A stretch of 52,605 nt of DNA from a virus (lineage: Duplodnaviria; Caudoviricetes): IMG/VR virus record IMGVR_UViG_3300019926_000173, positions 1-52,605 of that record. One strand, given 5' to 3'. Below are positions 22,575-52,498 of this stretch, one piece after another (within the stretch, counting starts at the first letter, position 1; the number at the start of each line of letters is the position of its first letter). The notes below the pieces were generated by a model that saw nothing but the letters and a program-made list of their open reading frames with translations, searched no databases and had not been told where the DNA came from. The position numbers and the translations under genes were made by a program.

Positions 22575-23666
22575 TCAGGCACCTCCCGAGAGAAGCTTGG
22601 CAATCGACTCGGCTGCCTCTTCCTCGACATCGTCATCGTCGAGGATTTCCAACTCATTCAGCTTCTTCAGAATGTCCCTGTCGAGCCGGGAGTACGGAAG
22701 GTTGACTGGGTGCTCCTCGACGGAGGTAATCTCTTCTTTGGTATCCTCGTCGTAGTCGACGGTCTGCTCTTTCGTGAGTCCCGTGATCTCACCGTCCTCG
22801 ACGAACTCGTCGAGTGAGCCCATGGCTCGGTGCTGGTCGATGGCCGTTCGATAGAGTTCGTTGAACTTGGCCTGGTGATCGCGACCGAAGGGGGCATCCT
22901 CGAGCCAGGAGTTGACCATTCCCTCGATGAAGGCCCGATCTTCCTGGTCGAGCGCTTCCCAGTAATTCGTTCGCTGGGCGAACAGGCCATGCGTCATCCC
23001 GTACGTGTTGCCGTTGTTGGGGTGCTCGCCCTCTGCGAAGTCCTGCTTGTCGGCATGATCGTTGCAATGCGTCTTCCCGTCTTCGCTCAACGGGTACCGC
23101 TCACAGTATCCGACGTGCTCGTTGTACCGATTGGTGACGTTGTGCGGAGCGGAACCATCGATATGGATCCACGTCGCCGTGCCTGCCTCGATGGCAGTCA
23201 TATCCTCGTCTTCGAGCTCGCCGAGTTCCTTCGACTGATACGTCATGTCGGGCTCCTCGACGGGAGGCCGATTCTGATCTACCGCAGTAACTGCCTCCGA
23301 CGCACGCATGGCGTCGGCGGTCGGGATCGAGTCTCCGTCGCCAGCACCGGGGGTGACGTCTGCCCCAAGGGCGACGGCGTCGAGGACGTAATCGTCCCAG
23401 AGCCATTTCCGAAGGGTGCGATAGTCGGGTACAACCTCGACGATGTGTGAGGGATCGTCGGCTGTATCGACAAAGCGACAGAGGACAACAGACCCAGACT
23501 GATCAGTTACCTCGAGCGCATCATCGTGGCCACTATCTGATGCGCCGAGTGTAATCTCGACTCCCAGTTTGTGCGTAATGTTGGCTGCGCACCGATCCGG
23601 GAGTGGTTCTGAGCTGACCATTGCGACGTGATCGCCCTCGGAGAGGGCGAGTCCCAGTACGGCCAT
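22575..23666 (-). CDS. Terminase small subunit-like protein (start uncertain)
   Basis: GYCERYP..HCNDH..GNTYGMTHGLFA resembles the C..C.H..GN.NA.KHGL motif of TerS-like proteins. The 5' part overlaps a structured element, so the true start may be downstream. Confidence 0.6.
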   Translation of the reverse strand: MAVLGLALSEGDHVAMVSSEPLPDRCAANITHKLGVEITLGASDSGHDDALEVTDQSGSVVLCRFVDTADDPSHIVEVVPDYRTLRKWLWDDYVLDAVALGADVTPGAGDGDSIPTADAMRASEAVTAVDQNRPPVEEPDMTYQSKELGELEDEDMTAIEAGTATWIHIDGSAPHNVTNRYNEHVGYCERYPLSEDGKTHCNDHADKQDFAEGEHPNNGNTYGMTHGLFAQRTNYWEALDQEDRAFIEGMVNSWLEDAPFGRDHQAKFNELYRTAIDQHRAMGSLDEFVEDGEITGLTKEQTVDYDEDTKEEITSVEEHPVNLPYSRLDRDILKKLNELEILDDDDVEEEAAESIAKLLSGGA

Positions 23667-23685
23667 CGCAAAGCGATGCGCCGAC
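23560..23685 (+). ncRNA. Candidate structured element, copy A
   Basis: 42/44 nt identical to 39699-39742; stacked hairpins. Confidence 0.45.
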
Positions 23686-23904
23686 GTGTGACAAAATACG
23701 AGACTGCGTTTCAGAAAAACGGAAAGATGGAAAAGAGATGGAGCGGTCCGACCCGACGATAATTAGTTCGTGGAGATTATCGATGAGAGACGTGGTGAGT
23801 CAACAGACGAGCAGTCTCGGACGCGCCCAGTAGCCAGAGACGAAAGAGGAGAAAGAAAATAGTGTAGCCATCCGGACGGGAAATGGGAGACTCCTGTCTG
23901 CATG

Positions 23905-23932
23905 AATCCGTAGTCCGTGCGGTCCTTTTAAG
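23905..23932 (-). promoter_or_regulatory. Late-type promoter upstream of the TerS-like gene
   Basis: CTTAAAAGgaccgcacgGACTACgGATT. Confidence 0.6.
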
Positions 23933-23955
23933 CAGGACTGGACTACGATACCCCG

Positions 23956-25074
23956 TTACTCGTCGTCGCTGGAGAGCTTGCTCAGTGCGGAGATTCCGAC
24001 CAGGCTGACGATGATACCACTAAGGCCACCGATGATCATATCATCAGTGAGCAGGCGGGAGTCACCAGACTGGGTCGTGGTCGGCCCCGAGGCACTCTCG
24101 GTCGATCGGGGCCGAAGTGATCGGGTCGGCGTCGATGGGGGCTGCGTCGGGGTCGACTGGTCCGGCGTCTGGGTCGACGGATCCTCCGGTGTTGGCGTCT
24201 CCAGTCCGGGGGTTGGCGTCGTCGGCGTTGGGTCCGGACTCGACATCTGGTCCGGTGATTCGACGAACTCGACGAAATAGGTCCCTGGGAGATCTTCCTC
24301 GTCCCAGCCAACAACGTCGATCGTGTAGGTCCCAGACGATTGCAATGTCGTCGCCAGTGTTGGCTTGAGAGAGTAATGTGCCTTGTCCGATTGGAATTCA
24401 TCAGTCTCGTCGACGACGTTTCCATCCGGGTCGCGCAGACGGAGTGAGAAGTATTTCTCACTCAACCTGAGAACAATCGAATCACCGTAGCTCCCCTCGA
24501 ATGTGACCGACTCGACAGTTGATTCTGTCTGTCCGTATCTGGTCGTCGTTGAATCCGTCCGTTCGATAGTTCCACCACGATACTCGCCGTACTCGATCGT
24601 CTCGAGATCAGTGACGATATTGCTGAACCGAAGCGTAAATTCGCCCGTCGAGCGGGCGTATTCGGTTGTGACGTAGACTGTGTAGGTCCCAGTCAATTCG
24701 AGCGTCTGGTCGATACTGGCGACACGTCCGCTCGTTTCTTCGACGATTGCCCCGTCTGGATCAACGAGTCGGACCCGTGGGTTGACGTTGCTTGATTTGG
24801 TTCTCACGAGGAGGTGGATCTGGTCACCAGCGCGCCCACTAATATCATCACCACCGTAGCCGGCAAATTCGTACTTCTCAGTGTAGTGATCTTCCGTATC
24901 GAACGGCGTCGTCGAATGCATGGACGTTAGCTCCTCCGTGAACTGATCACCGTATTCGATCGTATCCGCTGGAATGGTAGTTGATTGGCCCGAGACAGTG
25001 GGGACGAGTAGCGACGTACCGGCTGCTGCTGTTCCAGCAAGAAGCTGCCGACGGCTGAGACTACGGTGGTCCAT
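23956..25074 (-). CDS. Tat-exported, membrane-anchored surface protein with 2 PPC-like domains
   Basis: SRRQLL Tat motif plus h-region; two RLVDPDG..GTYT domains; Pro/Thr linker; C-terminal TM helix. Confidence 0.85.
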   Translation of the reverse strand: MDHRSLSRRQLLAGTAAAGTSLLVPTVSGQSTTIPADTIEYGDQFTEELTSMHSTTPFDTEDHYTEKYEFAGYGGDDISGRAGDQIHLLVRTKSSNVNPRVRLVDPDGAIVEETSGRVASIDQTLELTGTYTVYVTTEYARSTGEFTLRFSNIVTDLETIEYGEYRGGTIERTDSTTTRYGQTESTVESVTFEGSYGDSIVLRLSEKYFSLRLRDPDGNVVDETDEFQSDKAHYSLKPTLATTLQSSGTYTIDVVGWDEEDLPGTYFVEFVESPDQMSSPDPTPTTPTPGLETPTPEDPSTQTPDQSTPTQPPSTPTRSLRPRSTESASGPTTTQSGDSRLLTDDMIIGGLSGIIVSLVGISALSKLSSDDE

Positions 25075-25132
25075 TTGTTCTATTACTGACTACATATGCA
25101 GGCTAGAAAAAAGTATTGCAGATGAGTATGCG

Positions 25133-27143: not shown

Positions 27144-27347
27144 TGCCCTGATCGAAATAAGAGCTGGTCCGATCCTATATTGTGGCCGGGTCTGTGCTGA
27201 CGGTTGCACGTGTTCGGATGAACGACCAGCGCACGCGTTACTCGCGCGCGGAACTGGATTAACGCCCTCGCGAGTGCGCTGACGCTGGCACTCGCTCGGG
27301 CTCCGTGGACAGTCGCCTTTGTCTGGAGGGACGGAGTCGACGTGAAC

Positions 27348-27690
27348 GACGACGTGGTCGACGTAGGACTAGACAGAGACGATGTCGACGTTGAAGACGA
27401 CGTGGTCGACGTAGGACTAGACAGAGACGAGGTCGACGTGAACGAAAACGTGGACAGCGTCGGAGTAACTAGCGATGTAGTCGACGCGAACGTGGACGTG
27501 GCTTGCGTGGGAGGCGACGAGGCTGCCATCAGCATGAACGTATGCGTGGAGTCGGTCCGATGTGGCGAGGGTGGACGTCCACTCGACGCAGACGGTGGGA
27601 CCGCTATCGGGAGCAACGGGACTGCTGACGTCGACACGAACGGTGGCACCGCTGTCGGGAGAAACGGGGCTGCTGTCGACACGAACGATG
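27348..27690 (+). repeat. Two pairs of 48-bp-period direct repeats
   Basis: GACGACGTGGTCGACGTAGGACTAGACAGAGACGA at 27348 and 27396; ACGGTGG.ACCGCT.TCGGGAG at 27592 and 27640. Confidence 0.8.
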
Positions 27691-28573
27691 GGGAGAGGTC
27701 GACCACCAACAATCAGAAAGCCCTCACTCGCTCGCGGGACCGTTCCGGGACCCACACTGCGCTCCAGTAGGTGCTTGAGGGGTCCGGGACCACTCGACCG
27801 AGTTCGCCCTTTCAGTCCACCAGCGCCGGCCCCGCCAGGTCGCACTCCTCCTCCTCGCGGGCTCTTCGTGAGCTCGGGTCACGATTTCGACGGACCCTAC
27901 CCGCGTTCTCCCGACACTATTCCGCGCCGACGGCGCGGAAGCCTTGTCTTGTCGAACGCGGGTCCCTTCCATCGAAATCGACCGACTCACATTCATCACT
28001 ACGCAACGGAGAGCTTGCGACGGCTGGACATCAGCTGAAAGAGTCCCACCCGACATTTCAGATGTCAATCACCTCCAACACCTCACCACAAGGGCGCGCG
28101 CGGTCTCTCAACACCGCCCGACCGCGCTCGCAGCCAGCAGAGCTGGCTGTTCGGCTCCGCGCGAGACTGCGCTCGCATCAGCTCGCGCTTCCTCGTGCTC
28201 GTGACCTCGGGCGGGCCCGAGGTCGGCCATTCGTCGTACCGCGGGGGCTTCCTATCACACGATTTCTCTGAACTGTGGACCCTGAGCCGGGTCCCGATTT
28301 TGACGAATCGCGTAGCTTTCGTCGAAATCGACCGGCTCAGAGTTCCTCGTAACAGAAAATCGAGCGATAGCCTTCCTCCTACCATAATTTTGTTAGCACT
28401 TAACCCCGCTGTTTCACTGTGCGCGAGACTGCTGCCGTTGGGACCAACCGCAGGACCGGTCGCGCACGCGCACCAGTGCGCGCGCACGTTTGCCCCAACG
28501 GCGAGCTTCCTCGTGCTCGGAAATGGTGTTGGCCCTGCTCGTAGAGCTGGCCAACACTACCGGGCGTGTGGCC

Positions 28574-28866: not shown

Positions 28867-28955
28867 CGACCAAAATCATAGGGACAGGTGTCCCGCTCAG
28901 GGGCTCACAGCGACCGCGCGTGGTCGGTGGCCTCGGGCGTGACAGGTCGTTCAGT

Positions 28956-29963
28956 ATGAATGACAACAACAGCAGTTCGAAGGACGAATTGGTTTCAATC
29001 AACGGCGTCGGTCCGACGGTCGCGTGGCACCTCCAGTGCGAGGGCTTCGAGACGGTCGCCGACATCGCACGAGCGGACGCGGACGAGTTGGCGTCTGTGC
29101 ACGGAATCGGTGTTGCTCGCGCCAACCAGCTCATCACCGAAGCAGCTGAGATGGTCGAACTCGACGATGACGACGACGATGCGGGCGACGAAGCGAGCGA
29201 CAGAACGGTGGTGCCGGACGGACGCGAGGTTGCACACGTGGCCATCTACGCGGACGACGGTGACTTCCCTGACAGCATTGGCACGGTCGAGCACAGAAAC
29301 GAGGTCGGTGAGGACGGATACGATGACCTGGTTGAGGCAATCAAGCTCATCCAGGAAGCAATCGACGATTCCCCATTCAAGCCAACGTCTGTGGTCTTCT
29401 CGAACTTCGCCTCGCACGCAGTCGCAGTCCGAAGTTGGGCCATCATTCATCAGAATTCCGACTTCGACTACAGCCCCAAAATTCGGGCCATCGACTTCCA
29501 GTGGCCAACCTGGGACGACTTCGCGACGAACCGGGATGGCGAGAGAGTGAGGGTCAGAGACGACGACGGGCTGACCAGTGAGGGCTGGAAGATGGGGTTC
29601 CGGGCGACCGACGCGAAGTTGGCCGATGTCGCGAAACACGCAATCTGCGTGACTGAAGACGAGTTCGAATGGACGTTCACCAACGAGTTCGAAGACAACA
29701 ATCCGAAGGGTGACGTCTACAGGCACTACGAGGACTCAATCGAGGCCGACGTCGCCTCCGACGCGATGGGCGTCGATATCACGGAACAGGACCAGACGGC
29801 AAACAAGGGCCACTGGGACGAGGCTGCGGACGAACTCATGCCTCCAAGTGAGGATGCGTGGCACCGTGGTCCGATGGACACGGTAGACAGCCGTGATACG
29901 GACGAGTTCCTCGACGGTGACGGTGTGCCAAAAGCGGACGAGAAGGAGTTCACCAGCAGATAA
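28956..29963 (+). CDS. Helix-hairpin-helix protein with degenerate SLOG-like domain
   Basis: INGVGP..VHGIGV double HhH; C-terminal part aligns with 31242-31784. Confidence 0.75.
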   Translation: MNDNNSSSKDELVSINGVGPTVAWHLQCEGFETVADIARADADELASVHGIGVARANQLITEAAEMVELDDDDDDAGDEASDRTVVPDGREVAHVAIYADDGDFPDSIGTVEHRNEVGEDGYDDLVEAIKLIQEAIDDSPFKPTSVVFSNFASHAVAVRSWAIIHQNSDFDYSPKIRAIDFQWPTWDDFATNRDGERVRVRDDDGLTSEGWKMGFRATDAKLADVAKHAICVTEDEFEWTFTNEFEDNNPKGDVYRHYEDSIEADVASDAMGVDITEQDQTANKGHWDEAADELMPPSEDAWHRGPMDTVDSRDTDEFLDGDGVPKADEKEFTSR

Positions 29964-29980
29964 GACGTCTGCCCGCTGTC

Positions 29981-29990
29981 TTTTTTATTT
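29981..29990 (+). terminator. Oligo-T terminator
   Basis: TTTTTTATTT after the stop. Confidence 0.5.
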
Positions 29991-29994
29991 CCCG

Positions 29995-30235
29995 GACGGG
30001 CATCGAAACGGGCTCGGTGCCACTCGTTGACGGGGCGCTCCGACCCACAAGGGGTCGTCGGTCCATTCGACCTATCGGTCGAATCCGAGCCAGCGGTGGG
30101 TTGGAACTACCACGGACGCGCGTTCCGCACCGACTCGGTCGGCGTCACCGAGGGCTCTGGGAGCCCCTCGTGACGGCTCCCGCAGTGCGACCATCTCGAC
30201 CTAGAGTGCGTCGACCGCTCGCGCGCCCGAGCCAT
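29995..30235 (+). ncRNA. Candidate multi-branched structured RNA
   Basis: At least 7 stems in intergenic DNA. Confidence 0.4.
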
Positions 30236-30282
30236 ATCAACGCTCTCAGAGTGCGCTGACGCTAGCACTCTTCGAGCTCGTC

Positions 30283-30510
30283 GAAAAACCGGGCTCGGGT
30301 GAACCGAATGACGAACAGACGAAAAAAGACAGCACCGCTCCGCCGAACAAGACCGCACCGCACAGCCCAGCACCGCTCCGCCGAAAAACCGGGCCTGGGT
30401 GAATCAGAACGAAAAAAAAAACAACAACAGCGACAGCAGGACCGACAAAAAACCGGTCTGAACTGCACTCGGACAAAAACGAACGAACAGACTGGTACCG
30501 GGTGAGTCGA
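30283..30510 (+). repeat. A-tract-rich ~100-bp degenerate repeats (GAAAAACCGGGC..GGGTGAA)
   Basis: Copies at 30283 and 30383; weaker copies near 30445 and 30497. Confidence 0.6.
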
Positions 30511-30666
30511 AGAGAGCTGCAGGGACAACCGAGGCCATCGGCAAAGTCGAAGTCCGCGAAGCGGACGCCGTACTCTGGAAGTCGCCAAGGGCGACGACCA
30601 AGTCCCCGTAGCCCCCGCTCGACTCACAGCACAACCGAAAAATTGCGATTCCGACCGACGATACAT

Positions 30667-30861: not shown

Positions 30862-31241
30862 ACCGCAGGCCGACAATCGAATCCAACAATCATGACTGAC
30901 CGAACAATCTCACTCGGCGACGGTGGAACAAAACAGCAGAAAGACACGGCAGATGCAATCGAGCAACAGCGAGCTCGGGAGACATCCCCGTAGCCCCCGC
31001 AGGGGTCAGCAAGACAACCGAATAATGCGACCGAAAAAACGACCAACAACACCGTGTCGGAGTCCCGCAAAGCGGACTCCGCACTGCGGAAGCAGTCTCC
31101 GACTGCGACCGAGTCCGAACTGCCTGAAACGAGTCTGCATCGATGCAGGCCAGTCAGAAACGGACGCACTGGACGCGCACTACGAAAACGAGTGCGCACT
31201 GACGAATCGGACGACAGAATAAATTGCGACTCACGTGAACT

Positions 31242-31784: not shown

Positions 31785-31917
31785 GACCTCACCGACGACT
31801 CGTTTTGCCGACGATATTTCCGGACAGCAGTTGCAACTCGAAGAACTCCCGGTATGAGTGAAACGCCATCGGCAACATAAGCGTAGCCCCCGCACGGGTC
31901 AGCAATACAACCTAATA

Positions 31918-32190
31918 ATGCACCCAGAACTCGCAACCCAGATAGTCGCAGACCGTGAATCGCTCCCCGAACGAAAGCTGCTGAAGACGATGCTGGACCT
32001 GCTTGACATGAACGCAGCCTACGACGTCAAGACTGTCGGCCAGGGTGGCACGATAGCCCTGAAGATAACCGGCCACAGCGTCCCAGACATCGCAACGAGC
32101 GTTGATGCCACCGCAGCGACGGACTTTGGCATCGACCGCATCATCGAAGACCCAGTCTTCGACGGTGTGGTGCTCACGTATATGCGTTAG
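31918..32190 (+). CDS. Hypothetical protein
   Basis: ORF starting at the end of a repeat motif. Confidence 0.65.
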   Translation: MHPELATQIVADRESLPERKLLKTMLDLLDMNAAYDVKTVGQGGTIALKITGHSVPDIATSVDATAATDFGIDRIIEDPVFDGVVLTYMR

Positions 32191-33161: not shown

Positions 33162-33244
33162 GCGAACTATACAACCTGCTGATGTCACTCAGCCTGTTCG
33201 CGATGGCACTCGGACTGCTCGTGGTCGGCGTGGGAGCAGTATAA
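33158..33244 (+). CDS. 28-aa membrane microprotein
   Basis: MSELYNLLMSLSLFAMALGLLVVGVGAV; overlaps both neighbours by ATGA/TAATG. Confidence 0.55.
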   Translation: MSELYNLLMSLSLFAMALGLLVVGVGAV

Positions 33245-33438
33245 TGACGGACGACGAAACGTACTACTGTGGCGCCGACACGACGTCATCGCCACACGAT
33301 ACGTGCCAGCGTGAAGTTGCGTACGAACACGCCCGATGTCCGATGCACCCAATCACGGTATTGGAGGCAGAAACGGTCGAAATCGAACCACCCGAACACA
33401 GCGACCTTCGCGAACAAATCAGAGAGATTCAATCATGA
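33244..33438 (+). CDS. Hypothetical protein (C..C..C..H)
   Basis: Translationally coupled ORF. Confidence 0.6.
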   Translation: MTDDETYYCGADTTSSPHDTCQREVAYEHARCPMHPITVLEAETVEIEPPEHSDLREQIREIQS

Positions 33439-35111: not shown

Positions 35112-35151
35112 AATTGAGTCATAACTGAATTCATCAGTCAACACAGTATAC

Positions 35152-35745
35152 ATGCATCAACTCATCACGTTGGTCGTTACCGCAGATGGCAACGACCATG
35201 CACGACAAATCGCAGAGGCAACGTTCGAACACAATGGCGGGCTCGACCAGCACTTCGACTACGGTAAGACGATGAGCGAAGACGCACGATGGAGCGACCA
35301 GATGGCAGACGTCGTCCAAGAAACTGGTGCCATCGAAGCCAATACCGAGACTGGGTTGGACCTAATCAACCGGTCCTGGGAGTCGACCATCGAAGCGCTC
35401 AACCGAAATTTGGCAGTCGTTCGGACCGCATTCGAACAGGGCGCGTCCAACAAGGAGGTCCTCGAACGCCTTGAGGTCGAGACAGAGGTTGACAAGTGGA
35501 ACCCACTCGGACTCGCACAAGAGGAAGATGACCTCAGTGAGACGTACACGAGCGACGTCCGATACGCAATGCACACTATCGGGAGCTACGGTGGGCCGGA
35601 TTATCACCTCTACCACGGTGACTACGCAGAAGCAATCCGGCGACCGTCGGCGTACGAGCAACTCATCGAGGATATCAAGGCAGATGCATCGTACCCCGAT
35701 GAAAAGCTGACATATTTCGCCATCCCGATGGACGTGCATTACTAA
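35152..35745 (+). CDS. Hypothetical protein (C-terminal DVHY)
   Basis: 197-aa acidic ORF. Confidence 0.8.
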   Translation: MHQLITLVVTADGNDHARQIAEATFEHNGGLDQHFDYGKTMSEDARWSDQMADVVQETGAIEANTETGLDLINRSWESTIEALNRNLAVVRTAFEQGASNKEVLERLEVETEVDKWNPLGLAQEEDDLSETYTSDVRYAMHTIGSYGGPDYHLYHGDYAEAIRRPSAYEQLIEDIKADASYPDEKLTYFAIPMDVHY

Positions 35746-38993: not shown

Positions 38994-39167
38994 ATGAGCG
39001 ACAACGAACAATCGAGTTACACTATCAACGGCTGGATCCCTACAGTTCCAGTTTCGACCGAGGTAGAGGCAGCGTCACGCGAAGAGGCAGAAGAATTGGG
39101 GCGCGAACAACTTGAAGCAGAACACGGCAACGTAGATATCGACGAGGTGATAGAATGGGGGACGTAA
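38994..39167 (+). CDS. Microprotein (VEAASREEA)
   Basis: Manually read 57-aa ORF. Confidence 0.55.
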   Translation: MSDNEQSSYTINGWIPTVPVSTEVEAASREEAEELGREQLEAEHGNVDIDEVIEWGT

Positions 39168-39412
39168 ACTGCCAATGCTGTGGAGAGCCCTACGGCGTGT
39201 ATTCTCTCCACCACGAGATTCCAGAATGGGACGACCAACCAGACGACGCGTACGATCGATTCATGAACGGAGAGGGCTGTCCAACCTGTGACTGGGGCGA
39301 GAAGGCCGGCGACGTCAGCCTCAGTCGCGAGCAGGACCAGGCAGAGCTCGACGCCCAGCACCTGCAGGGCATCATGAACGAGACTGATGACGACCCAATC
39401 CGGTTCTTCTGA
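39155..39412 (+). CDS. Zn-binding hypothetical protein
   Basis: CQCCGEP..GCPTC. Confidence 0.7.
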   Translation: MGDVNCQCCGEPYGVYSLHHEIPEWDDQPDDAYDRFMNGEGCPTCDWGEKAGDVSLSREQDQAELDAQHLQGIMNETDDDPIRFF

Positions 39413-39416
39413 ATCG

Positions 39417-39632
39417 ATGTACGGCAACATCACAGTCACACTTCGACACGAAACGGGACGAACAAAGACGATCAAAAACTGCCGTCGAGCAGGACACACG
39501 GACAACGGAACAATCGAAGTCGCGTACCTACTCCCAGGTGTCGACAACGACGTCCACGTTGACGAATACGGCGGGCTCGAGTGGGACATCGAGTCGGTCA
39601 GCCATACAGAGATCCCACCAGCAGAACGATGA
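39417..39632 (+). CDS. Hypothetical protein
   Basis: ORF in operon. Confidence 0.6.
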   Translation: MYGNITVTLRHETGRTKTIKNCRRAGHTDNGTIEVAYLLPGVDNDVHVDEYGGLEWDIESVSHTEIPPAER

Positions 39633-39742
39633 CTCGGAGTCCGCAAGCGGACGACGGAGTCTGGAATCCGTACCGCGGAGTCCGACTCGGACGCGCCCAG
39701 AGGGCGAGTCCCAGTACGGCCATCGCGAAGCGATGTGCCGAC
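39631..39742 (+). ncRNA. Candidate structured element, copy B
   Basis: Intergenic; four hairpins; core shared with 23642-23685. Confidence 0.5.
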
Positions 39743-39998
39743 AGCAAGCACAAACGAAATCCTCGTCAAATTGGACGACGGGGAGATGAGAGAACGCCGA
39801 GGTGTCGCATACGCTGAAGACGTTGTCAGAGACGAAGATAATCAGGCAGGAGTCGCAGTCCAGTACATGAGACAGCCAGAGCACAAAGAACCACAGACGG
39901 AGTTCATCGAAGATGCCAGCCTCGTTGGCGTCTACGATGAGATCTGTGACGACTATCTGGCCAACGAATACCGCAACCTCGTCGAAATCGATCCATAG
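39735..39998 (+). CDS. Hypothetical protein
   Basis: Acidic ORF; start GTG 39735 or ATG 39786. Confidence 0.6.
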   Translation: MPTASTNEILVKLDDGEMRERRGVAYAEDVVRDEDNQAGVAVQYMRQPEHKEPQTEFIEDASLVGVYDEICDDYLANEYRNLVEIDP

Positions 39999-40010
39999 GA
40001 AGTGACAAAC

Positions 40011-40766
40011 ATGGGACAATATTTCCAGATTAGGAACCTCAGTCGAAAAGAAGCAGTCAAACTACCAGGCGGAATGAAAGCAGTCGAGCGTGTGACTGAC
40101 ATCGCAGCCATGGGCCCGATCGGCTACCTCCTACTCGAGGGCCCGATCGATGGCACCAGCTTCGGTCGGATGATCGACCGTGAAGACCTGCCAGACGAAG
40201 AGATCCAGGCAAAGATTGACCAGGAACTCGCACAACTCGACGAAAGCGACTACTACGACTCGAAAGAAGACCTGGTCTACTACGACGAAGATGCCGACGA
40301 CTGGGACTACGACAGCATCGTCCGCGTCGTCGCAGCCGGCTACCAGATTGGCGACTTCTTCGAGTACGCCGGGCGCTGGGCAGGCGACGAAGTGACGCTG
40401 GTCGGCGACTACGCAGATAACGACCTGTACACAGAACCCCGGCCCGACGCGGTTATCGAAACGGCAGACGGCGTCGAGCATACGGTCGAGAACTGGGGAC
40501 AACCCCGAAAGGCGATCCCCTGTGGCCCGGATGAGAACTGCACTGCGAAACTCCCCGACGAGGATGCAGAACCGGGAGACACAGTGCAAGTACCATCATC
40601 TCTGGACATCGACGACCAGTTCGCCGAGTTCGTCCGTCTCGAGGACAACGAGTGGACCGACATCACGGACGGGCTGCTGGACGAATTCGCCCGATTCGTC
40701 GGTCCCGAATGGCTCGAAGAGCAGACGAACGGTCGATTTAGCCCGGACATGGTGCTCCAAGCATGA
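40011..40766 (+). CDS. Phage-type hypothetical protein (MGQYF..GRWAGD..VGDY)
   Basis: Motif pattern recalled from phage hypothetical proteins. Confidence 0.8.
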   Translation: MGQYFQIRNLSRKEAVKLPGGMKAVERVTDIAAMGPIGYLLLEGPIDGTSFGRMIDREDLPDEEIQAKIDQELAQLDESDYYDSKEDLVYYDEDADDWDYDSIVRVVAAGYQIGDFFEYAGRWAGDEVTLVGDYADNDLYTEPRPDAVIETADGVEHTVENWGQPRKAIPCGPDENCTAKLPDEDAEPGDTVQVPSSLDIDDQFAEFVRLEDNEWTDITDGLLDEFARFVGPEWLEEQTNGRFSPDMVLQA

Positions 40767-41044
40767 GAGACGATGAAATCGGAGACTCGCAAGGCGAGCG
40801 ACGCTTATCAGAGTCACCCTCGGGTGACGATGAAATCGAACTCAAACGTGGCGACGTCTTCAAGGACTCCGTTGAGTCCTTCCAGATCGTCGACATTCTC
40901 TCGTTCAACGAACTCGTGGTGACCAACCCACTTGTCAATCATCCACAGGACGCTAGTGCTGGAACGTGGAAAATCAAGAAAGACGAACTCAAAGAGGACC
41001 TCCGCAACGGTAACGTCGAACGAGCGGAACTCGAGGTCAAGTGA
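40763..41044 (+). CDS. Hypothetical protein
   Basis: Coupled ORF. Confidence 0.65.
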   Translation: MRDDEIGDSQGERRLSESPSGDDEIELKRGDVFKDSVESFQIVDILSFNELVVTNPLVNHPQDASAGTWKIKKDELKEDLRNGNVERAELEVK

Positions 41045-41051
41045 GAAGCAG

Positions 41052-41261
41052 ATGACGTACCTCAAGAATTGCGACGTTGGCGACAGTGTCTCGTTCGAAG
41101 ATAGGAACGGTAGTTTCGTACTCGCAGACTACACACAGCCAACAAAGTACGGATACGGGATCTGGGTCATCACGACGCACAACGGCGAATACGTCGACCT
41201 CGTCGAGGACAGTGGTGGCCTGAGAATAGAAAAAGATCCGGTCGAGGTAGTACGGAAATGA
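41052..41261 (+). CDS. Hypothetical protein
   Basis: ORF in operon. Confidence 0.6.
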   Translation: MTYLKNCDVGDSVSFEDRNGSFVLADYTQPTKYGYGIWVITTHNGEYVDLVEDSGGLRIEKDPVEVVRK

Positions 41262-41464
41262 CTGATGACACGCAACATCCGGAGGGATGCATGTGCGACA
41301 ACTGCCAACGATTCCGAGAGCGAGCTCGGATGAAAGAGAGCTACCCCGAAGAGCATCAGCGACTGAAGCACATCCGCGGGCAGGACAGTGAACCCGATCC
41401 GGTCCTCTCGAATATCTCAGACGGAATGAGAGAGCGCGAAGCACGGGCAGAAGGATACATATAA
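41258..41464 (+). CDS. Hypothetical protein
   Basis: Coupled ORF. Confidence 0.6.
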   Translation: MTDDTQHPEGCMCDNCQRFRERARMKESYPEEHQRLKHIRGQDSEPDPVLSNISDGMREREARAEGYI

Positions 41465-41673
41465 TGACCCACAAAGATAGCGTCAACTACGAACCCTGCG
41501 AGAACTGTGGTGAACAGCACTTCAAACAACAGGTCATCCAGACTGAGGAAGTCAGAGTCGACGAAAACGGAGAGCCAGACGAATTCGTCCCGACAGGGAG
41601 TTTTCAGGTGCAGAGAATCTGGTGTGTCGAATGTGACGAACTCGTCTTCGATCAAATCAGCAATGAAGACTAA
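41464..41673 (+). CDS. Zn-ribbon microprotein
   Basis: CENCG..CVEC. Confidence 0.65.
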   Translation: MTHKDSVNYEPCENCGEQHFKQQVIQTEEVRVDENGEPDEFVPTGSFQVQRIWCVECDELVFDQISNED

Positions 41674-41884
41674 AAGCTATACCGTCGAGACGTTGATCAC
41701 AATGTGGCAAGAGGGAGAAATTGGCGTCGAGGACGGTGAGATAGAGCCTGCTGACGAGCTCACGATAGAGGTCATCTTCCAGGGAAGCGACGGCAAGCTC
41801 TACCTCACGTACGACCTCCAAGACGACCTCGCAGGTCGAAGTGACACAGACCAACCGGGTCGGTTCAACATCTTCGACTACTAA
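41663..41884 (+). CDS. Hypothetical protein
   Basis: Coupled ORF. Confidence 0.6.
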   Translation: MKTKSYTVETLITMWQEGEIGVEDGEIEPADELTIEVIFQGSDGKLYLTYDLQDDLAGRSDTDQPGRFNIFDY

Positions 41885-42216
41885 TGACACTCGTTGCAAC
41901 CTGCACGAACTGCGAAGACCAGCACAGAGTCGGCGATCGACCAGCCCGAGGTGACACAACATGTTGCGGGACATCGTGTCCACAGTGTGACCACCCTGGA
42001 TACAGCTCAGAGGTGATCGACGAAGACGTCAAAAGCGAAGCCAGTAAGATCGAAGACGCACTCGAGGGCGTCGATGGGATCGGAACGAAGAACAAGCAGA
42101 ACGCGATCGACGCATTCGTCCGATACGACGACTTCGAGCGCGCCAGTGCGAGCAAACTGACCGATATTCGCGGGATCGGCTCGCAAACGGCTGAAAATAT
42201 TATCGACGCACGATAA
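41884..42216 (+). CDS. Zn-ribbon plus HhH DNA-binding protein
   Basis: CTNC..CPQC; VDGIGTK and IRGIGSQTAENI. Confidence 0.75.
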   Translation: MTLVATCTNCEDQHRVGDRPARGDTTCCGTSCPQCDHPGYSSEVIDEDVKSEASKIEDALEGVDGIGTKNKQNAIDAFVRYDDFERASASKLTDIRGIGSQTAENIIDAR

Positions 42217-42303
42217 TCCAATCACAGTCAGCAAGTAGGAACTAACTGAATTGCGTTAGAGTAAAGTACGTCAAGTGCATATACAGCAGTACCACAGTGA
42301 CTA

Positions 42304-42645
42304 ATGAGTAAACAACAGACACCAGTCAAAGACGAATCGGCGATTCAAGAACTCGGCGAGCACGAAGATCACCCGTCGCACCTCGACAAACACGGCTACG
42401 AAGTCGACGACGACATCCAGCAGGCAATCGAGAAACTCCGTAGCGGACTCCAGGTCGACCGAGCGATCTGTTGTTACTACGAAACGAAGCGCCTGCAGGT
42501 GTGGAGTCACGACAAGTACCTGCACGGCTCAATAGTGCGCGCAGCACGGTCAGCCGGATTCGAGCTCGACTTTGCACGGACTCGAACCTGGCTCAATGAA
42601 GACGTCGGCTACGCGGAGTTCGTTCCAACAGGAGATGAACAATGA
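42304..42645 (+). CDS. Hypothetical protein
   Basis: Follows an early promoter motif. Confidence 0.7.
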   Translation: MSKQQTPVKDESAIQELGEHEDHPSHLDKHGYEVDDDIQQAIEKLRSGLQVDRAICCYYETKRLQVWSHDKYLHGSIVRAARSAGFELDFARTRTWLNEDVGYAEFVPTGDEQ

Positions 42646-43067
42646 AAGCACAACAGCAAGATCCACGACCAGTCTGCGGAAGTTGTGGCGGAACGATGAG
42701 CGATGAGGACCGAGCCGAATGGTTCTGTCCCGGCTGTGCCGAGTACGCCAGAAACCTACCGACGATCCAACCACAGTCACCATCACATCCGACCTTCGAG
42801 CGACGGCTCACAGACGATCCAGAGCTGGCTACCGGATATCATCTGATCAGAAGCGACGTGAATGATGAATACGGCACCAGTCTCGGTACAATCGTCCAGT
42901 ACACGGATGGGGACGACGAATACCTAATCGAGACGAACCTCGATGAGCCGTTCAACGTAACACAGCGCTGGATCGACCACGAAACGCTGCTCGAGTTCCT
43001 CGTGACGCCCGATGGAATGAATCCACCACGCGCCAAATCAGACCAGCTCGTCCTCAGATTAGAATGA
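42642..43067 (+). CDS. Zn-ribbon hypothetical protein
   Basis: CGSCG..CPGC. Confidence 0.65.
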   Translation: MKAQQQDPRPVCGSCGGTMSDEDRAEWFCPGCAEYARNLPTIQPQSPSHPTFERRLTDDPELATGYHLIRSDVNDEYGTSLGTIVQYTDGDDEYLIETNLDEPFNVTQRWIDHETLLEFLVTPDGMNPPRAKSDQLVLRLE

Positions 43068-43330
43068 CAGAATCTAAGCCTGCAAAGCAGGAGCCAGATT
43101 GCGGAAGCTCCGAAGGAGCGACCGAGACAGAAACTCACGACACGGAAGATCAGTGCATCGAAGCAGAAGCATTCCTCGGTGACGAGGCCGACGAGCCGGA
43201 GTTGATCGACGACGGTCAGGCGTTCACAGAGAAACGGACGTGCCCCGTCTGTGGCAGAGAGTGGGAGTACGTCTTCGACATGGTCGGACTCTGGAATCCG
43301 CGAGAGAAAGAGTACGAGTGGGAGAAGTAG
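43064..43330 (+). CDS. Hypothetical protein (CPVCG)
   Basis: Coupled ORF. Confidence 0.65.
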   Translation: MTESKPAKQEPDCGSSEGATETETHDTEDQCIEAEAFLGDEADEPELIDDGQAFTEKRTCPVCGREWEYVFDMVGLWNPREKEYEWEK

Positions 43331-43410
43331 AAGTCCAAGTCGGACTCTCTCAAGAGAGCGTCCGTACTGGAACTTGGAGTCGCCTGAAGGCTTCTCCGAG
43401 TACAAGTCGC

Positions 43411-43611
43411 ATGGGAGAAACGTTCGAACACGAACAAGTCATTCAGACAGACCACGGCCAGTACGGTAGTGAGTGTGCGATCTGTGCTGAATCGACGTCG
43501 ATCACGTACCGTCTCGAGTCAGAAACGCACGCTGCAGACTGCTGTGGAGACTGCTTCGCAGGCTGGCTCGTCGAACACGGTGGCTCCGTCACGCTCGATC
43601 TGGACTACTAA
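43411..43611 (+). CDS. Zn-binding microprotein
   Basis: CAIC..CCGDC. Confidence 0.6.
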   Translation: MGETFEHEQVIQTDHGQYGSECAICAESTSITYRLESETHAADCCGDCFAGWLVEHGGSVTLDLDY

Positions 43612-43613
43612 AC

Positions 43614-43781
43614 ATGGAAAACGATAGAACCGAGATTTCGCTCAAGTGCCCGAACTGTGAAGAAAAACACGGCCACATCGTCTACGAGCCGGCACCGGTC
43701 GATACGTTCGGAACGACGTGTCCGGACTGCAGTGAATTCAGCAAGCACGAAGTAACCGGACGGATCGACTCACATTCATGA
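43614..43781 (+). CDS. Zn-ribbon microprotein
   Basis: CPNC..CPDC (manually read). Confidence 0.55.
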   Translation: MENDRTEISLKCPNCEEKHGHIVYEPAPVDTFGTTCPDCSEFSKHEVTGRIDSHS

Positions 43782-43833
43782 TGAGAGTGGTCGCATTGCA
43801 GAAGCTCCAAAGGAGCGACTGAATCTGGTGACA

Positions 43834-44310
43834 ATGGCAACAAAACCAGCACTACACCGATACGCCGATCGAATGAAAAGTGGCGAAGTCATCGTTGGAT
43901 CCAACCACGATGATTTCCACTTCAACGCACAAGAAAAAGATCGGTACGACGTCCGAAAATTCAGCGTCACACAACGGTCACGAAATGTCGAAAATACAGG
44001 ACAGATACAACCTGTCTACTACATGGTCGGGCGCGTGGACATGGAAGACGTCGTTCGGAAGTTCCTCGAAGTGAACGAGACGTGGGCCGAGGTGAACTAC
44101 AAGTTCAGCATCACACAGATGTTCGGCAACATCAGTCAGGACGCAAAAGACGCGTGGAAGAACGTCTGCCACGAGTTCGACTGTCGGACGAGAGACTACA
44201 CCAGCGACGGTGGTGAGGGAAAAGACGACGATCGGAACGACTGTGGGCTGTGTGGCGCCGAAAACGTCGACCTCTCGTCACACCTCAGAAACAGCTGCCC
44301 GGAGAAATAG
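43834..44310 (+). CDS. Hypothetical protein with C-terminal C2HC finger
   Basis: CGLCG..HLRNSCP. Confidence 0.7.
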   Translation: MATKPALHRYADRMKSGEVIVGSNHDDFHFNAQEKDRYDVRKFSVTQRSRNVENTGQIQPVYYMVGRVDMEDVVRKFLEVNETWAEVNYKFSITQMFGNISQDAKDAWKNVCHEFDCRTRDYTSDGGEGKDDDRNDCGLCGAENVDLSSHLRNSCPEK

Positions 44311-44315: not shown

Positions 44316-44561
44316 ATGAAACAACCACTCGACAACATCGACGACGAACTGGCCGATCTCGATACGGTCGAAGATGCCAGAATAGACACAGTCAATCAAG
44401 AGCTAGAAATCGAAATCGAACTGGAGAATAGTTCGTGGGGAATCCCAGGTGAGATCTACGAAGCAATGTACAAGAATCGAATCGTCATCATTGACGTCAG
44501 CCACGTCAGCGAAGACGGATTCACTGCGTACTGCGTACACGCAACGGAGGCATTCAAATGA
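44316..44561 (+). CDS. Hypothetical protein
   Basis: ORF in operon. Confidence 0.6.
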   Translation: MKQPLDNIDDELADLDTVEDARIDTVNQELEIEIELENSSWGIPGEIYEAMYKNRIVIIDVSHVSEDGFTAYCVHATEAFK

Positions 44562-45064
44562 ACTGCCAAGTATGCGACTTCGATAATACACCAGCACCAG
44601 GCGGACAAGCACCAACGCACTGCGAAGGATGTGGGACCAGAATCGGGGGCGGGGACAAGCCGTTCCCCGGTATCCGAGTCGATCCGGATGGCCACCCCGA
44701 GCACGATCGGACAGACCCAGTCGTGGTCTGCGCATCGCATAGCGATGGCAGTACTGTGGAAGTCTCCGAAGGAGACGCCCAAGTCGACGACGAACTACGA
44801 AACCAGTTCCCACACAGTGAGGTCGACGACGTCCTCGTGATCATCAAAGCGACCTATCACTGGGGACGTGGCATCGGAATGGAGCCAGACGGCTACATGA
44901 CCGACGAGCGCGTCACTGTCGAAGAGACAGAAGAACCCTGCGAGCAGTGTGGCAACGACGAAATCCGTGCATCGTACAGTCAAGACGGAGCCGGCATTGC
45001 AGGCGCCTACACGGCGACGTGTACGCGCTGTGACTACGTCCGGACGAAGGAACACTGGGCATGA
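44558..45064 (+). CDS. Double Zn-ribbon protein
   Basis: 4 CxxC motifs. Confidence 0.7.
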   Translation: MNCQVCDFDNTPAPGGQAPTHCEGCGTRIGGGDKPFPGIRVDPDGHPEHDRTDPVVVCASHSDGSTVEVSEGDAQVDDELRNQFPHSEVDDVLVIIKATYHWGRGIGMEPDGYMTDERVTVEETEEPCEQCGNDEIRASYSQDGAGIAGAYTATCTRCDYVRTKEHWA

Positions 45065-49148: not shown

Positions 49149-49151
49149 CTC

Positions 49152-49628: not shown

Positions 49629-49786
49629 TGCCAACAATCTGCCCTAAATGTGAAACAGAAATACGGTGGATGTACGACGAAGCAACAGTAAATCCGACTG
49701 ACGCAGTCGTTCCAGGTGCGTGTCCCGATTGTGGGACTGCATTCCGAAAACGATACGAAATCGATCGGATAGACGAGGTGATTTAA
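49628..49786 (+). CDS. CPxCG microprotein
   Basis: CPKC..CPDCG (manually read). Confidence 0.55.
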   Translation: MPTICPKCETEIRWMYDEATVNPTDAVVPGACPDCGTAFRKRYEIDRIDEVI

Positions 49787-49788
49787 AA

Positions 49789-50052: not shown

Positions 50053-50055
50053 TCG

Positions 50056-50274
50056 ATGACAGATGATTTCACCGATATTGCAAATCAGTGTCGCAACGAT
50101 GGAACAATTGCGGTCCACTTTGCTGGGCAAGTGTCGAACGGCAAAAAGCTCCGCATTGAAGCCGACGAGATTCCACAGTGGCTCTGGATGTGGATGCACA
50201 CCAACGGTGGCTACCCAGTCGAAGCGTATTCGACACGACCGATCACACTGACGTTCAAAATTCCTGAATTGTAG
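50056..50274 (+). CDS. Hypothetical protein
   Basis: ORF in operon. Confidence 0.6.
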   Translation: MTDDFTDIANQCRNDGTIAVHFAGQVSNGKKLRIEADEIPQWLWMWMHTNGGYPVEAYSTRPITLTFKIPEL

Positions 50275-50315
50275 GTAACATCGAAAGCAGAACAGCGAGG
50301 ACGACCAATCTATCG

Positions 50316-50364
50316 CCTTATGTAGCAACAAGGCCACGGTGCGACGCCAATATGCTACATAAGG
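50316..50364. repeat. Inverted repeat CCTTATGTAGCA-N25-TGCTACATAAGG, copy 2
   Basis: Identical arms to 9159-9207, unrelated spacer. Confidence 0.9.
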
Positions 50365-50405
50365 GATGACGAGCGATCGCAGGCGACGAGCAGACACATC
50401 TATCA

Positions 50406-51182
50406 ATGGAACCAACACACGGCGAGTACGATCAGACTGAAGTTGCGGGAAGTACAGAACTCAACCAGCGGATCCGAGATGCAGAGTGCCTGACTGACTG
50501 GCGACGGATCCTCAACGATCACATCTCGTGGGGGAACACGAAAGTCGGCGACGACACGGCAATCTTCAACATGAACTCGGCAACCGATTGCCCGAACGCG
50601 AAGACACAGGAAGAGGGCGAGTCCGACACTGGCCTGTGTCAAGTCGGCTGGGACACCTGCTACGCTCACAAAGCAGAGAACGCATATCCAAACGCACTAC
50701 CCTACAGACGTCGACAAGAGATGCTCTGGGACCATCTCGACGCGGATACGTTCGCCAAAGCCTTCCTCGAGATCTGTGACAACAAGGTCACGATGGGAAA
50801 CACGGACTCGATCAGCGACATCGACCTTCGGGTCAGCGAATCAGGCGACTTCCGACACCGTGGCGACATCGTCAAAGCCGAACGCATCGCCGACCTACTC
50901 GAGGGGCACGGAATCACGATGTACACCTACAGTGCCAGTTACAAGCTCGACTGGTCGGTCGCAGACACACTCGTCGTCCAACAGTCCGTCGCCAGTGCGA
51001 ATTACGGTGATCGAGTCTTCACCGCCGTCGAAAGCGTCGACGAGCTCGACGACAACACAGTTGCCTGTCCGTACTCACTCCAGCAGCAAAATGACGTTCC
51101 GGAAGAAGAGCGGACCAAGTGTGGGGACTGTCGACTTTGCCTCAACCACGATGGACCAGACGTTGCCGTCATCGAACACTAA
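50406..51182 (+). CDS. GP88-like phage protein (radical-SAM-like, Cys-rich)
   Basis: GNTKV..CP..C..CYA.K..RVSESGDF..YTY..CP..CGDCRLC. Confidence 0.7.
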   Translation: MEPTHGEYDQTEVAGSTELNQRIRDAECLTDWRRILNDHISWGNTKVGDDTAIFNMNSATDCPNAKTQEEGESDTGLCQVGWDTCYAHKAENAYPNALPYRRRQEMLWDHLDADTFAKAFLEICDNKVTMGNTDSISDIDLRVSESGDFRHRGDIVKAERIADLLEGHGITMYTYSASYKLDWSVADTLVVQQSVASANYGDRVFTAVESVDELDDNTVACPYSLQQQNDVPEEERTKCGDCRLCLNHDGPDVAVIEH

Positions 51183-51379
51183 TGCACGACATGAATCCGC
51201 CACCAGACATCGATAGCGAAATCACGGTCGAAGAGAAGCACACCTGCAACGATTGCGGACACGACGCAGTCATGCTGTATCACGCAGGACGATGTGCAAA
51301 TTGCGCCTTCGACGTCGAAGAACGGCAGAGTCGCAGCCAGAACGAGATCACAACCCAACAAAGCGAACTCCACTCATGA
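51182..51379 (+). CDS. Zn-binding microprotein
   Basis: CNDC..CANC. Confidence 0.6.
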   Translation: MHDMNPPPDIDSEITVEEKHTCNDCGHDAVMLYHAGRCANCAFDVEERQSRSQNEITTQQSELHS

Positions 51380-51690
51380 CAACCGAACACCTCATCCAGA
51401 CAGACTACGACGAGTTCATCAAACAGATCAGCGAAGCTGGCACGAAGATGGGCGCGGATCCAGAGAAGGTTGCACAGATCGCCATCATCGCAACAGAAAA
51501 GATCGATGAAAACGAGTACATCCTGCGATTCAACGGTGATCCATACATCATGGAACGCGTCTGGCCGAGTGACGTCTTCCAAAATAGCGACCGATATCCA
51601 GTCGTCACTGAAGGCGAGGACGTGACGATCCGTGACATGGCAGTCGAAATCCTCGCCAGCGAGATTCAAGTATATAGAGACGCAGAATAG
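51376..51690 (+). CDS. Hypothetical protein
   Basis: ATGA-coupled ORF. Confidence 0.65.
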   Translation: MTTEHLIQTDYDEFIKQISEAGTKMGADPEKVAQIAIIATEKIDENEYILRFNGDPYIMERVWPSDVFQNSDRYPVVTEGEDVTIRDMAVEILASEIQVYRDAE

Positions 51691-51717
51691 TGCAGGATTG
51701 AACTACCGCGTTCTATA

Positions 51718-51873
51718 CCCCACTGACGTGCTCTCCCGTGACGTAGCGGTCGTACCGAACGACCTGGGAGTGGGGCCCGCACCAGTTCAGACGAGCTGGT
51801 CGCTAAACGGGCACAGACGTGGATGAGCCAGACGGCGAATCCAGGTACGAGAGCTCCCGACAGGAGCGACCGA
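51718..51873 (+). ncRNA. Candidate structured element, copy D
   Basis: Intergenic; nested stems; GGAT..ATCC-AG-GTACG core. Confidence 0.45.
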
Positions 51874-51890
51874 AAAATTGGAGACTACCA

Positions 51891-52424
51891 ATGCTACTCG
51901 AAGTCAACAAAAGCGAAGAAGCACGACTCCTCGAACTGGACGGATTCAATCGACACGGCGAGAAGGCTGTCATCGCACAGACCTTCGAATCAGCACACAG
52001 TGTGCTCGATCGAGAGGACGTCACCGTCCGTAAGATCGTCATCGAACGAGAAAACGGAGATGAAGAAGGTGCACTGATCGATGACTACCTACAGACGGGC
52101 CTCGCAGGCAGTCACACGCTTCATAGCCCACGGGTGAAACGACTCAGCACGAACAAGGATGACATCCTGAAGACGGAAAGCCGACGGAAACGTGTGAAAA
52201 TCAAAGAGAACAAAATCGTCGCAAAAGATCGCTTCCGGTCAGTACTCAACGGAACGTTCCGCCCTGAACCCTCGACCGAAGACGTTCACAAGACGCTCAA
52301 GAAGGCACAAGAACGAATCGACGACGCAATAGCCGATCATCAAGAACGAATCGAGGAACTGCGCTCGATGTGGGACGAAATAGAACAGATGTCCCACGGT
52401 GAGTTCGTCGAAGAATACTGCTAA
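51891..52424 (+). CDS. Hypothetical protein with C-terminal coiled coil
   Basis: ATG 51891 with GGAG upstream. Confidence 0.7.
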   Translation: MLLEVNKSEEARLLELDGFNRHGEKAVIAQTFESAHSVLDREDVTVRKIVIERENGDEEGALIDDYLQTGLAGSHTLHSPRVKRLSTNKDDILKTESRRKRVKIKENKIVAKDRFRSVLNGTFRPEPSTEDVHKTLKKAQERIDDAIADHQERIEELRSMWDEIEQMSHGEFVEEYC

Positions 52425-52440
52425 GTTGCAGTAACCACTC

Positions 52441-52498
52441 GCCCTGGACTCGGTCGCAGACCGTGTCCTGGTACGGCGCCTGCAAAGCAGGCTTCGAC
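52441..52498 (+). ncRNA. Candidate structured element, copy C
   Basis: GGAC-hairpin-GTCC-TG-GTACGGC-hairpin-CGAC. Confidence 0.45.

Follow-up and report, generated by a model that had tools for sequence, protein, structure and literature searches.

The 52,605-bp virus record IMGVR_UViG_3300019926_000173 (IMG/VR; Duplodnaviria, Caudoviricetes) carries a dispersed set of short elements that fold into two adjacent hairpins, and the question raised by this locus is whether these elements act as RNA or are pieces of DNA that move. The window analyzed here is the entire record, which is classed as linear and about 40% complete. The original prediction, made from the letters alone, had left four options open: an RNA processing site, a ribozyme, a small RNA, or a tiny mobile element. 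Our analysis sustains the last of these, whereas nothing was found in support of the RNA options, the elements having neither a match in Rfam nor a consistent strand. We consider it probable that the copies form a family of miniature non-autonomous mobile DNA elements of ∼57 bp, each composed of two adjacent imperfect palindromes. The broader description as a mobile or insertional DNA element can be given with slightly more confidence, and a specific IS200/IS605-type mechanism, suggested by analogy, is possible but doubtful.

The first step was to establish the extent of the family. Four copies (A to D) had been named on the plus strand, and all four were confirmed: the 10-nt core TCCNRGTACG occurs four times in the window, on the plus strand only and exactly at these copies (0.74 occurrences expected; 1 of 100 shuffles reached four). 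A covariance model trained solely on these four copies was used to score every position of the window. Behind the training copies, this model ranked four new full-length matches, all on the minus strand, at 44721-44789 (29.2 bits, E 2.8e-6), 31052-31119 (26.1 bits), 43334-43412 (21.5 bits), and 30542-30608 (20.7 bits, E 6e-4). Since a model made from plus-strand copies finds four copies on the minus strand, the inference of plus polarity, which had been drawn from G-T wobbles, fails. One of these matches accounts for the looser fifth copy placed at 43333-43404; a copy does exist there but is better read on the minus strand (21.5 versus 13.4 bits). A second covariance model, built from all eight copies, added a degenerate candidate at 43068-43132 (−, 23.9 bits) and a weak one at 30128-30220 (+, 16.4 bits), together with a reverse-strand echo of copy B at 39654-39720 (−, 24.1 bits). 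The family is thus real but larger than the four to five copies first counted, and consists of eight clear copies, four per strand, and two degenerate ones, all located within 23.6-52.5 kb.

The copies also share sequence in ways that are informative about their history. The 3′ 44 nt of copy A are 95% identical to copy B, at an unrelated locus, and copy F has mixed hairpin types, with a hairpin II in common with A and B and a hairpin I of the E/G type. This is recent spread or exchange between copies, and it favors a mobile element. That the hairpins are instead unrelated look-alikes brought together by chance, such as terminators, is very improbable. GC-rich hairpins are indeed common across the genome, but the four others recovered by the four-copy model at the E values given above repeat its order of parts and its conserved triplets, a 35-nt pattern common to E, F, and G occurs three times in the window (0.01 expected), and no T-runs follow the hairpins.

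The element is ∼57 nt long and its parts follow the order (C)GAC, 2 nt, hairpin I, 2-3 nt, GTAC(G), hairpin II, CGAC. In hairpin I, a small internal loop separates an outer helix closed by GG..CC from a stem of 5-6 bp, which is capped by a loop of 3-4 nt, and hairpin II has the same design. The terminal CGAC pairs with GT(A)CG, and the same GT can alternatively pair with the AC of the left GAC. In all eight clear copies the hairpins lie 2 nt and 0-4 nt from the element ends, and there are no terminal inverted repeats; by eye, the two ends of the aligned copies show no reverse complementarity to each other. The left flank reads CGAC in four copies, GGAC in two, AGAC in one, and CGCC in one, which places NGAC on the left of seven of the eight copies, and NGAC forms the right end of all eight if an alternative end, CGAC at 51866-51869, is taken for copy C. 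GAC is found on both sides in 7/8 copies, copy D carrying GCC on the left; for copy F, the plus strand reads GTC...GTC. Past the outer GAC triplets the flanks cannot be aligned, which gives the element sharp borders. A constant flanking triplet is compatible either with a 3-bp duplication at a specific target or with a target plus an element end.

The stems differ between copies yet stay paired, as had been claimed. In the eight-copy alignment, which was fitted to the model and whose pairing statistics consequently lean towards structure, 85.6% of 146 cells are paired as compared to 72.3 ± 2.0% after shuffling, and double-sided changes occur in 10 of 19 pairs as compared to 5.6 ± 1.4; neither value was reached in 500 shuffles. 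When the partners were slid by 1-3 columns, pairing fell to 29-47%. The helix between the linker and the right end shows double changes as well, from G-C to U-A in F and from G-C to A-U in the degenerate copy I. What defines the element is its shape, together with a few terminal bases, and not the sequences of its stems.

Covariation of this strength is a reason to consider a cis-acting structured RNA in viral transcripts, either an intercistronic processing or stability element or a two-hairpin polymerase-modifying RNA, a role that the put sites of phage HK022 are said to have. The copies are mostly intergenic in the early operon, and as RNA they fold significantly better than shuffles (z = −3 to −5.6). 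For C and D, the sense strand folds 3-5 kcal/mol better, and D has two G-U pairs. Yet only B, C, and D are sense with respect to local transcription, and the other five clear copies (A, E, F, G, and H) are antisense. Both strands also fold almost equally in sum (−237.4 kcal/mol for the motif strand versus −230.6 kcal/mol for the opposite strand), with the motif strand slightly more stable in five of the eight copies and the opposite strand in three, a further result that does not agree with a plus polarity. Two copies lie inside open reading frames (ORFs) and are missing from relatives, as described below. An Rfam search of the whole window at gathering thresholds, ribozymes included, gave no matches, and a search at E up to 10 of 8.3 kb around A, B, C, and D gave four weak matches, none at an element, which bears out the expectation that the motif belongs to no known Rfam family. 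We therefore regard a structured RNA as unlikely. Folding as single-stranded DNA (ssDNA) predicts the same structure (z = −5.7 for B and −4.8 for F), and a search for promoter-like motifs around the elements revealed no consistent link. It should be noted that, through intrastrand template switching, a change in one arm of a DNA quasi-palindrome can be transferred to its other arm; compensatory changes need not imply selection on RNA.

The most direct view of the elements as insertions comes from copy F (44726-44785, −), which lies in frame inside ORF 44558-45064 (+), with GTC trinucleotides at both borders on the plus strand. This ORF encodes an acidic protein of 168 aa that has CxxC pairs at either end, and bases 44726-44782 of copy F (57 nt) encode residues 57-75. 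A word-indexed search identified two relatives, P0007 (149 aa, 93% aligned identity) and P0009 (161 aa, 55%), both of which are without residues 57-75. When 1.84 billion representatives were searched exhaustively with phmmer, 15 hits had E values up to 1e-3. Six homologues were aligned, namely P0007 and the five hits that matched across most of the query; P0008, the window's own partial gene call, and nine hits that matched the C-terminal part only were left out. The same 19 residues are missing from 6/6 of these full-length homologues (39-93% identity, with four more distant ones at 39-44%), and the flanks on both sides of the gap are conserved. The gap coincides with copy F, which had been found independently by the covariance model. 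Because residues 57-75 are absent from near and distant relatives alike, the simplest reading is that copy F is a precise in-frame insertion in the lineage of the window. At the nucleotide level, the contig of a relative is interrupted at 44671 and continues exactly from 44783, where F has its right edge, although the joint is weak and the interval in between is given as "not known."

Copy I (43072-43128, −) provides a second, weaker case of presence and absence. This degenerate copy is located inside the 5′ end of ORF 43064-43330 (+), which encodes 88 aa. Both hairpins are retained and the linker and right end still pair, but the terminal triplets are altered (GTC, ATCT, AGAT). The only orthologue found, P0011 (71 aa), belongs to a close relative and is shorter by 17 residues at the N-terminus, in a segment that overlaps copy I. 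The source of P0011 is a contig of 10,450 bp, and the longest contig listed for P0007 has the same size. Copies whose length is a multiple of three and that contain no stop codon would be expected to persist inside ORFs, within variable linkers.

Taken together, the small size, the sharp borders, the absence of terminal inverted repeats, the palindromes next to the ends, the constancy of the short end motifs, the occurrence in both orientations, the presence and absence between relatives, and the near-identity of A and B point to a non-autonomous mobile DNA element. The way in which the elements fill most of otherwise very short operon gaps is in line with this reading. The clearest example is copy H (43339-43408, −), which has an enlarged hairpin I and is the loose copy mentioned above; it occupies nearly all of an 80-nt gap between the stop codon at 43330 and the ATG at 43411. 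Copy H is also present in a relative, where a 250-nt contig from a sediment metagenome run is ∼95% identical and covers 43155-43403, which is most of H.

The remaining copies occupy comparable sites. Copy B (39684-39742, +) is the best example of the design, with GAC, hairpin I, a CAGTAC linker, hairpin II, and CGAC; its hairpin I is closed by GGAC and has a 5-bp inner stem and a 3-nt loop. On its left is ORF 39387-39632 and on its right the ATG at 39786. Two further upstream stems had been described for A, B, and D, but these are not homologous between copies, and a third hairpin built to this design is seen in B alone, directly upstream (about 39655-39688). Because of this hairpin, the minus strand can also be read as the weak copy at 39654-39720. 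A 14-nt stretch, GA(G/C)TCTGGAATCCG, is found in the third hairpin at 39656-39669 and again at 43287-43300, where it belongs to the conserved C-terminal coding region of ORF 43064-43330. Copy A (23625-23685, +) has a degenerate outer helix in hairpin I and is situated among the genes of the minus-strand block, where it precedes the ATG at 23621 (ORF 22575-23621) by 4 nt. The original prediction had placed this copy at the start of terS; the longer frame, ORF 22575-23666, has no Pfam match, and its assignment as terS is putative.

Copy C (51816-51874, +) lies between ORF 51253-51690 and the ATG at 51891, and copy D (52441-52498, +) begins 17 nt past the stop of ORF 51891-52424. Directly after copy D there are 2.9 copies of a 23-nt tandem repeat (52499-52563), ∼40 nt before the contig end. 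Copies E (30546-30604, −) and G (31056-31115, −) are located in the non-coding stretches 29964-30666 and 30862-31241, respectively, and E adjoins a 47-nt promoter-like repeat at 30600-30646. Copy J (30128-30220, +) is a weak, probable relic that retains CGAC-TC-GG..CC-GCAGTGCG..CGAC; its hairpin I is enlarged and its hairpin II is poor.

How a miniature mobile element of this type would move can be outlined by analogy. The element would travel as ssDNA and insert beside GAC, and its hairpins would be recognized by an enzyme supplied in trans. The likeliest enzyme would be an IS200/IS605-type HUH (Y1) transposase, provided either by the host or by the remaining 60% of the virus genome. In IS608, a guide sequence pairs with the cleavage site, and there is a separate left guide; the GTAC(G)/CGAC pairing seen here might act in a like manner. 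A bolder version, which we consider rather unlikely, is that the family is a self-contained, shape-defined ssDNA transposon of ∼57 nt, in which the central GTAC(G), as the only guide, pairs with a CGAC at either border, both being identical sites of cleavage. Two hairpins of any sequence would then do, provided that each is closed by GG..CC, which would account for stems that drift freely beside triplets that stay fixed. Such an element would be a minimal variant of the guide-and-hairpin logic of IS200/IS605, moved by a viral or host enzyme that has gone unrecognized, and the virus could possibly use it to shuffle cassettes of early genes.

Several observations weigh against a mobile element or against parts of the proposed mechanism. 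The stems are highly divergent between copies, which is unusual for recent transposition or for a transposase that binds hairpins by sequence and is equally compatible with long-term selection on structure. The two hairpins of a single copy are unlike each other. With 2 nt between the left GAC and hairpin I, there is no room for a separate left guide like that of IS608, and GAC on both sides fits a 3-bp target duplication equally well. The orientation of the copies follows no simple replication-linked pattern. The empty sites are seen at the protein level only, and for copy I the fit is approximate, since a core of 57 nt equals 19 codons whereas the gap is 17 residues. Moreover, the window, ∼40% of the genome, encodes no Y1 transposase and no convincing TnpB: a search with PF01797 (Y1 transposase) found nothing in the six frames of the window, while control genomes, including that of Haloferax volcanii, were positive, and the best match to PF07282 (TnpB) was at chance level (E 0.05).

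A final point of the same kind is that no copy was found outside this virus, in searches that covered Halogranum tailed virus 1 (HGTV-1), viral contigs, megaplasmids, and pattern scans; haloarchaeal chromosomes were not scanned. With the eight-copy model, the best match in HGTV-1 had an E value of 0.1 and was no copy, neither of two giant viral contigs (220-230 kb) contained one, and three haloarchaeal megaplasmids (1.41 Mb) gave weak hits only, at most 21.5 bits. Two of the megaplasmid hits were inspected and fall inside annotated transposase genes of the ISH8 family (IS4-like). The 26-nt pattern of the hairpin II common to A, B, and F had no occurrence in viral contigs or in genome contigs. 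The E/F/G pattern was found at 14 metagenome loci, none with both hairpins (best score, 23.8 bits), and BLASTN of copy B against plasmids and phages returned chance-level matches only. A 14-mer common to A and B was present at 100 loci in viral contigs; these were judged to be chance, without model scoring, and set aside.

The absence of a transposase gene from the window bears on another explanation, namely that the hairpins spread through RNA or by template switching, with no dedicated transposase, as has been proposed for the double-hairpin elements of Allomyces mitochondria. The form and behavior described for mitochondrial double-hairpin elements are the same as those found here (PMC2800124). 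No reverse transcriptase gene was present among the 40 ORFs scanned, however, and the conserved terminal triplets suggest site-specific cutting; we hold this route to be quite improbable.

The orientation independence of the copies and their stable ssDNA folds, by contrast, could also be expected of DNA sites that serve the virus, that is, hairpins or cruciforms to which a viral protein would bind in order to prime replication, exert regulation, or recombine gene cassettes. T4-type phages, for example, carry cassettes of a promoter and a stem-loop. Two helix-hairpin-helix proteins are encoded nearby (28920-29963 and 41884-42216), E and G lie beside promoter-like 47-nt repeats in a long non-coding region, and a related virus has whole-gene insertions or deletions in this region. 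Nevertheless, designed sites do not readily account for copies F and I, which lie within ORFs, the joints of the relative's insertions and deletions match no element except at the right edge of F, and the partner protein would be a hypothetical one. We judge virus-serving sites to be unlikely, and a miniature mobile element continues to be the explanation that we favor.

The setting of the elements is that of a halophilic archaeal virus. HGTV-1 is the nearest cultured virus; the large terminase (TerL), encoded at 6565-8022 (−), is 38% identical to its HGTV-1 counterpart, the best tblastn match. With blastn, 1-8000 matched only the HGTV-1 prohead protease (68%), and a megablast search of 39000-44000 against phages gave zero matches. 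Within 1-26 kb the genes point leftward, and from ∼29 kb up to the end they point rightward; across the rightward block the plus strand is strongly A-rich, and most of the early ORFs have no Pfam family. Searches for related loci in viral contigs gave one distant locus with TerL as the query, the two giant contigs scanned above with a GP88-like early protein (35-37% identity), and none with protein P0004, and a search of genome contigs with the HNH protein gave none. One DNA run, from a sediment metagenome, contains 6% of the sampled words of the window; among the sequencing runs listed for it, none was of RNA. No tRNA or transfer-messenger RNA was found in the window.

Other features of the rightward block lie close to the elements. 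The stretch 29964-30666, which contains E and J, comprises ∼700 nt without a convincing ORF, with many GC-rich hairpins, long A-rich runs, and the highest AT skew in the window (0.40), and could be a regulatory or origin region. The 47-nt repeat occurs in three copies on the plus strand, at 30600-30646, 30982-31028, and 31875-31921, and ends in CCGAAWAAT(T)GC, which looks like a promoter with a B recognition element (BRE) and a TATA box. Three genes near these repeats (28956, 30667, and 31242) encode proteins that start with M(N/S)DNN. Three stretches, 35112-35745, 38996-39179, and 33162-33249, are skipped by the contigs that one metagenome run holds of a related virus. The first of these includes the whole 197-aa ORF 35152-35745, in place of which there are 25 other letters. 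As whole stretches are skipped, cassettes of early genes appear to have been gained or lost between relatives. Between the leftward and rightward blocks, a GC-rich region carries arrays of a 48-nt tandem repeat at 27327-27518 (four copies) and 27592-27691 (∼2 copies), which could be iterons or a repetitive coding segment.

The leftward block contains repeats of other kinds. An HNH homing endonuclease gene at 1817-3439 (+), on the opposite strand within the structural genes, encodes six homing endonuclease associated repeats (PF18780, E 5e-103), and its tandem DNA repeats of 180-186 nt are the largest in the window. The first ∼25 codons of terL are duplicated (7943-8030 and 9056-9143, −; 74% nucleotide identity). 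The second copy reads MDSLTDYSELRANPSKFVKEVLGLE... and then a stop, and lies directly upstream of ORF 8059-9018, which encodes a 319-aa protein with multiple helix-turn-helix motifs; this ORF may have inserted as a mobile element into the 5′ end of terL, or it may encode the small terminase. Finally, the adjacent large ORFs 15726-18743 and 18740-20545 (−), and also 14593-15723, have common N-termini (MSLVGWWPLDG...) and internal repeats of 62-175 nt, and look like paralogous genes of the tail-fibre type.

To our knowledge, records of transposable elements in archaeal viruses are rare, and our literature search turned up none for mini-elements of the hairpin type in a haloarchaeal tailed virus. 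The family is a clean case of a very small element that is conserved in structure and not in sequence. In-frame insertion into viral proteins offers a route by which small viral ORFs gain linkers and intergenic spacers grow. The family is also a caution for the discovery of RNA motifs, in that covarying intergenic hairpins can be mobile elements at the DNA level. Should the single-guide idea prove true, these copies would be a minimal natural substrate with which to study and engineer HUH-type ssDNA transposition in halophiles.

Among known systems, the attC sites of integrons are likewise folded ssDNA substrates that are recognized by shape, with short conserved end motifs and variable stems. 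They differ in being a single long imperfect hairpin with other end motifs and in their need for an integron integrase, an enzyme not seen here. The repetitive extragenic palindromes (REPs) of bacteria and their paired form, REPINs, are maintained as hairpins, have a short conserved 5′ motif, and are thought to be ssDNA substrates of RAYT transposases, which are IS200-like Y1 HUH enzymes. REPs, however, are conserved in sequence within a genome and number hundreds of copies, and REPINs are inverted pairs, not two different hairpins in tandem.

MITEs, or miniature inverted-repeat transposable elements, are short non-autonomous elements that have invaded virus genomes (PMC6004678, PMC11602168). 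As described there, MITEs are recognized by their terminal inverted repeats and by a duplicated target, and they usually exceed the present elements in length; a classical MITE was ruled out here because there is no terminal inverted repeat. The intergenic repeats of halovirus HF2, likewise a haloarchaeal tailed virus, measure 56-58 bp in class I, lie among its early and middle genes, and are described as AT-rich promoters that are conserved in sequence and keep their position and orientation across related viruses (PMC8707807). The present elements are GC-rich, sequence-variable hairpins without a TATA-like part, and a promoter repeat of this type was ruled out. On the published description, a better counterpart of the HF2 repeats may be the 47-nt repeats at 30600, 30982, and 31875.

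Fungal and sponge mitochondria harbor double-hairpin or repetitive hairpin-forming elements, which are found both within genes and in the spaces between them and whose insertion frequency is reported to vary among close species (PMC2800124). Like the viral copies, the elements described from Allomyces, the optional GC clusters of yeast, and those of sponges are short, two-hairpin, dispersed, and tolerated inside genes. The viral family has the two-hairpin fold, dispersal, and tolerance within genes that characterize this class, which is a descriptive one and not one of descent. The mitochondrial elements belong to eukaryotic organelles and, as far as they are described, have no sequence relation to the viral family, to which the GAC/GTAC/GAC triplets are specific.

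The closest described relatives in kind appear to be the palindrome-associated transposable elements (PATEs) of Haloquadratum walsbyi, the ends having been compared by description only. PATEs are described as lacking inverted terminal repeats, as carrying palindromes near their ends and a targeting oligonucleotide of 4-6 nt, and as heterogeneous in sequence, and an IS200/IS605-derived mechanism has been proposed for them (PMC3119063). The same source reports 52-bp, terminal-only remnants of IS605 type with six strain-specific insertions (PMC3119063). Going by that account, the viral elements differ in having two unlike hairpins and a conserved GTAC linker, where the 52-bp forms keep one copy of the palindrome repeat, in residing on a viral replicon, and in having no IS200/IS605 gene, and hence no cognate TnpA (Y1 HUH), within the window. 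They resemble PATEs, as these are described, in their haloarchaeal setting, the short conserved terminal oligonucleotide, the lack of coding content, and the heterogeneity of sequence, and all eight clear copies combine an absence of terminal inverted repeats with palindromes next to both ends.

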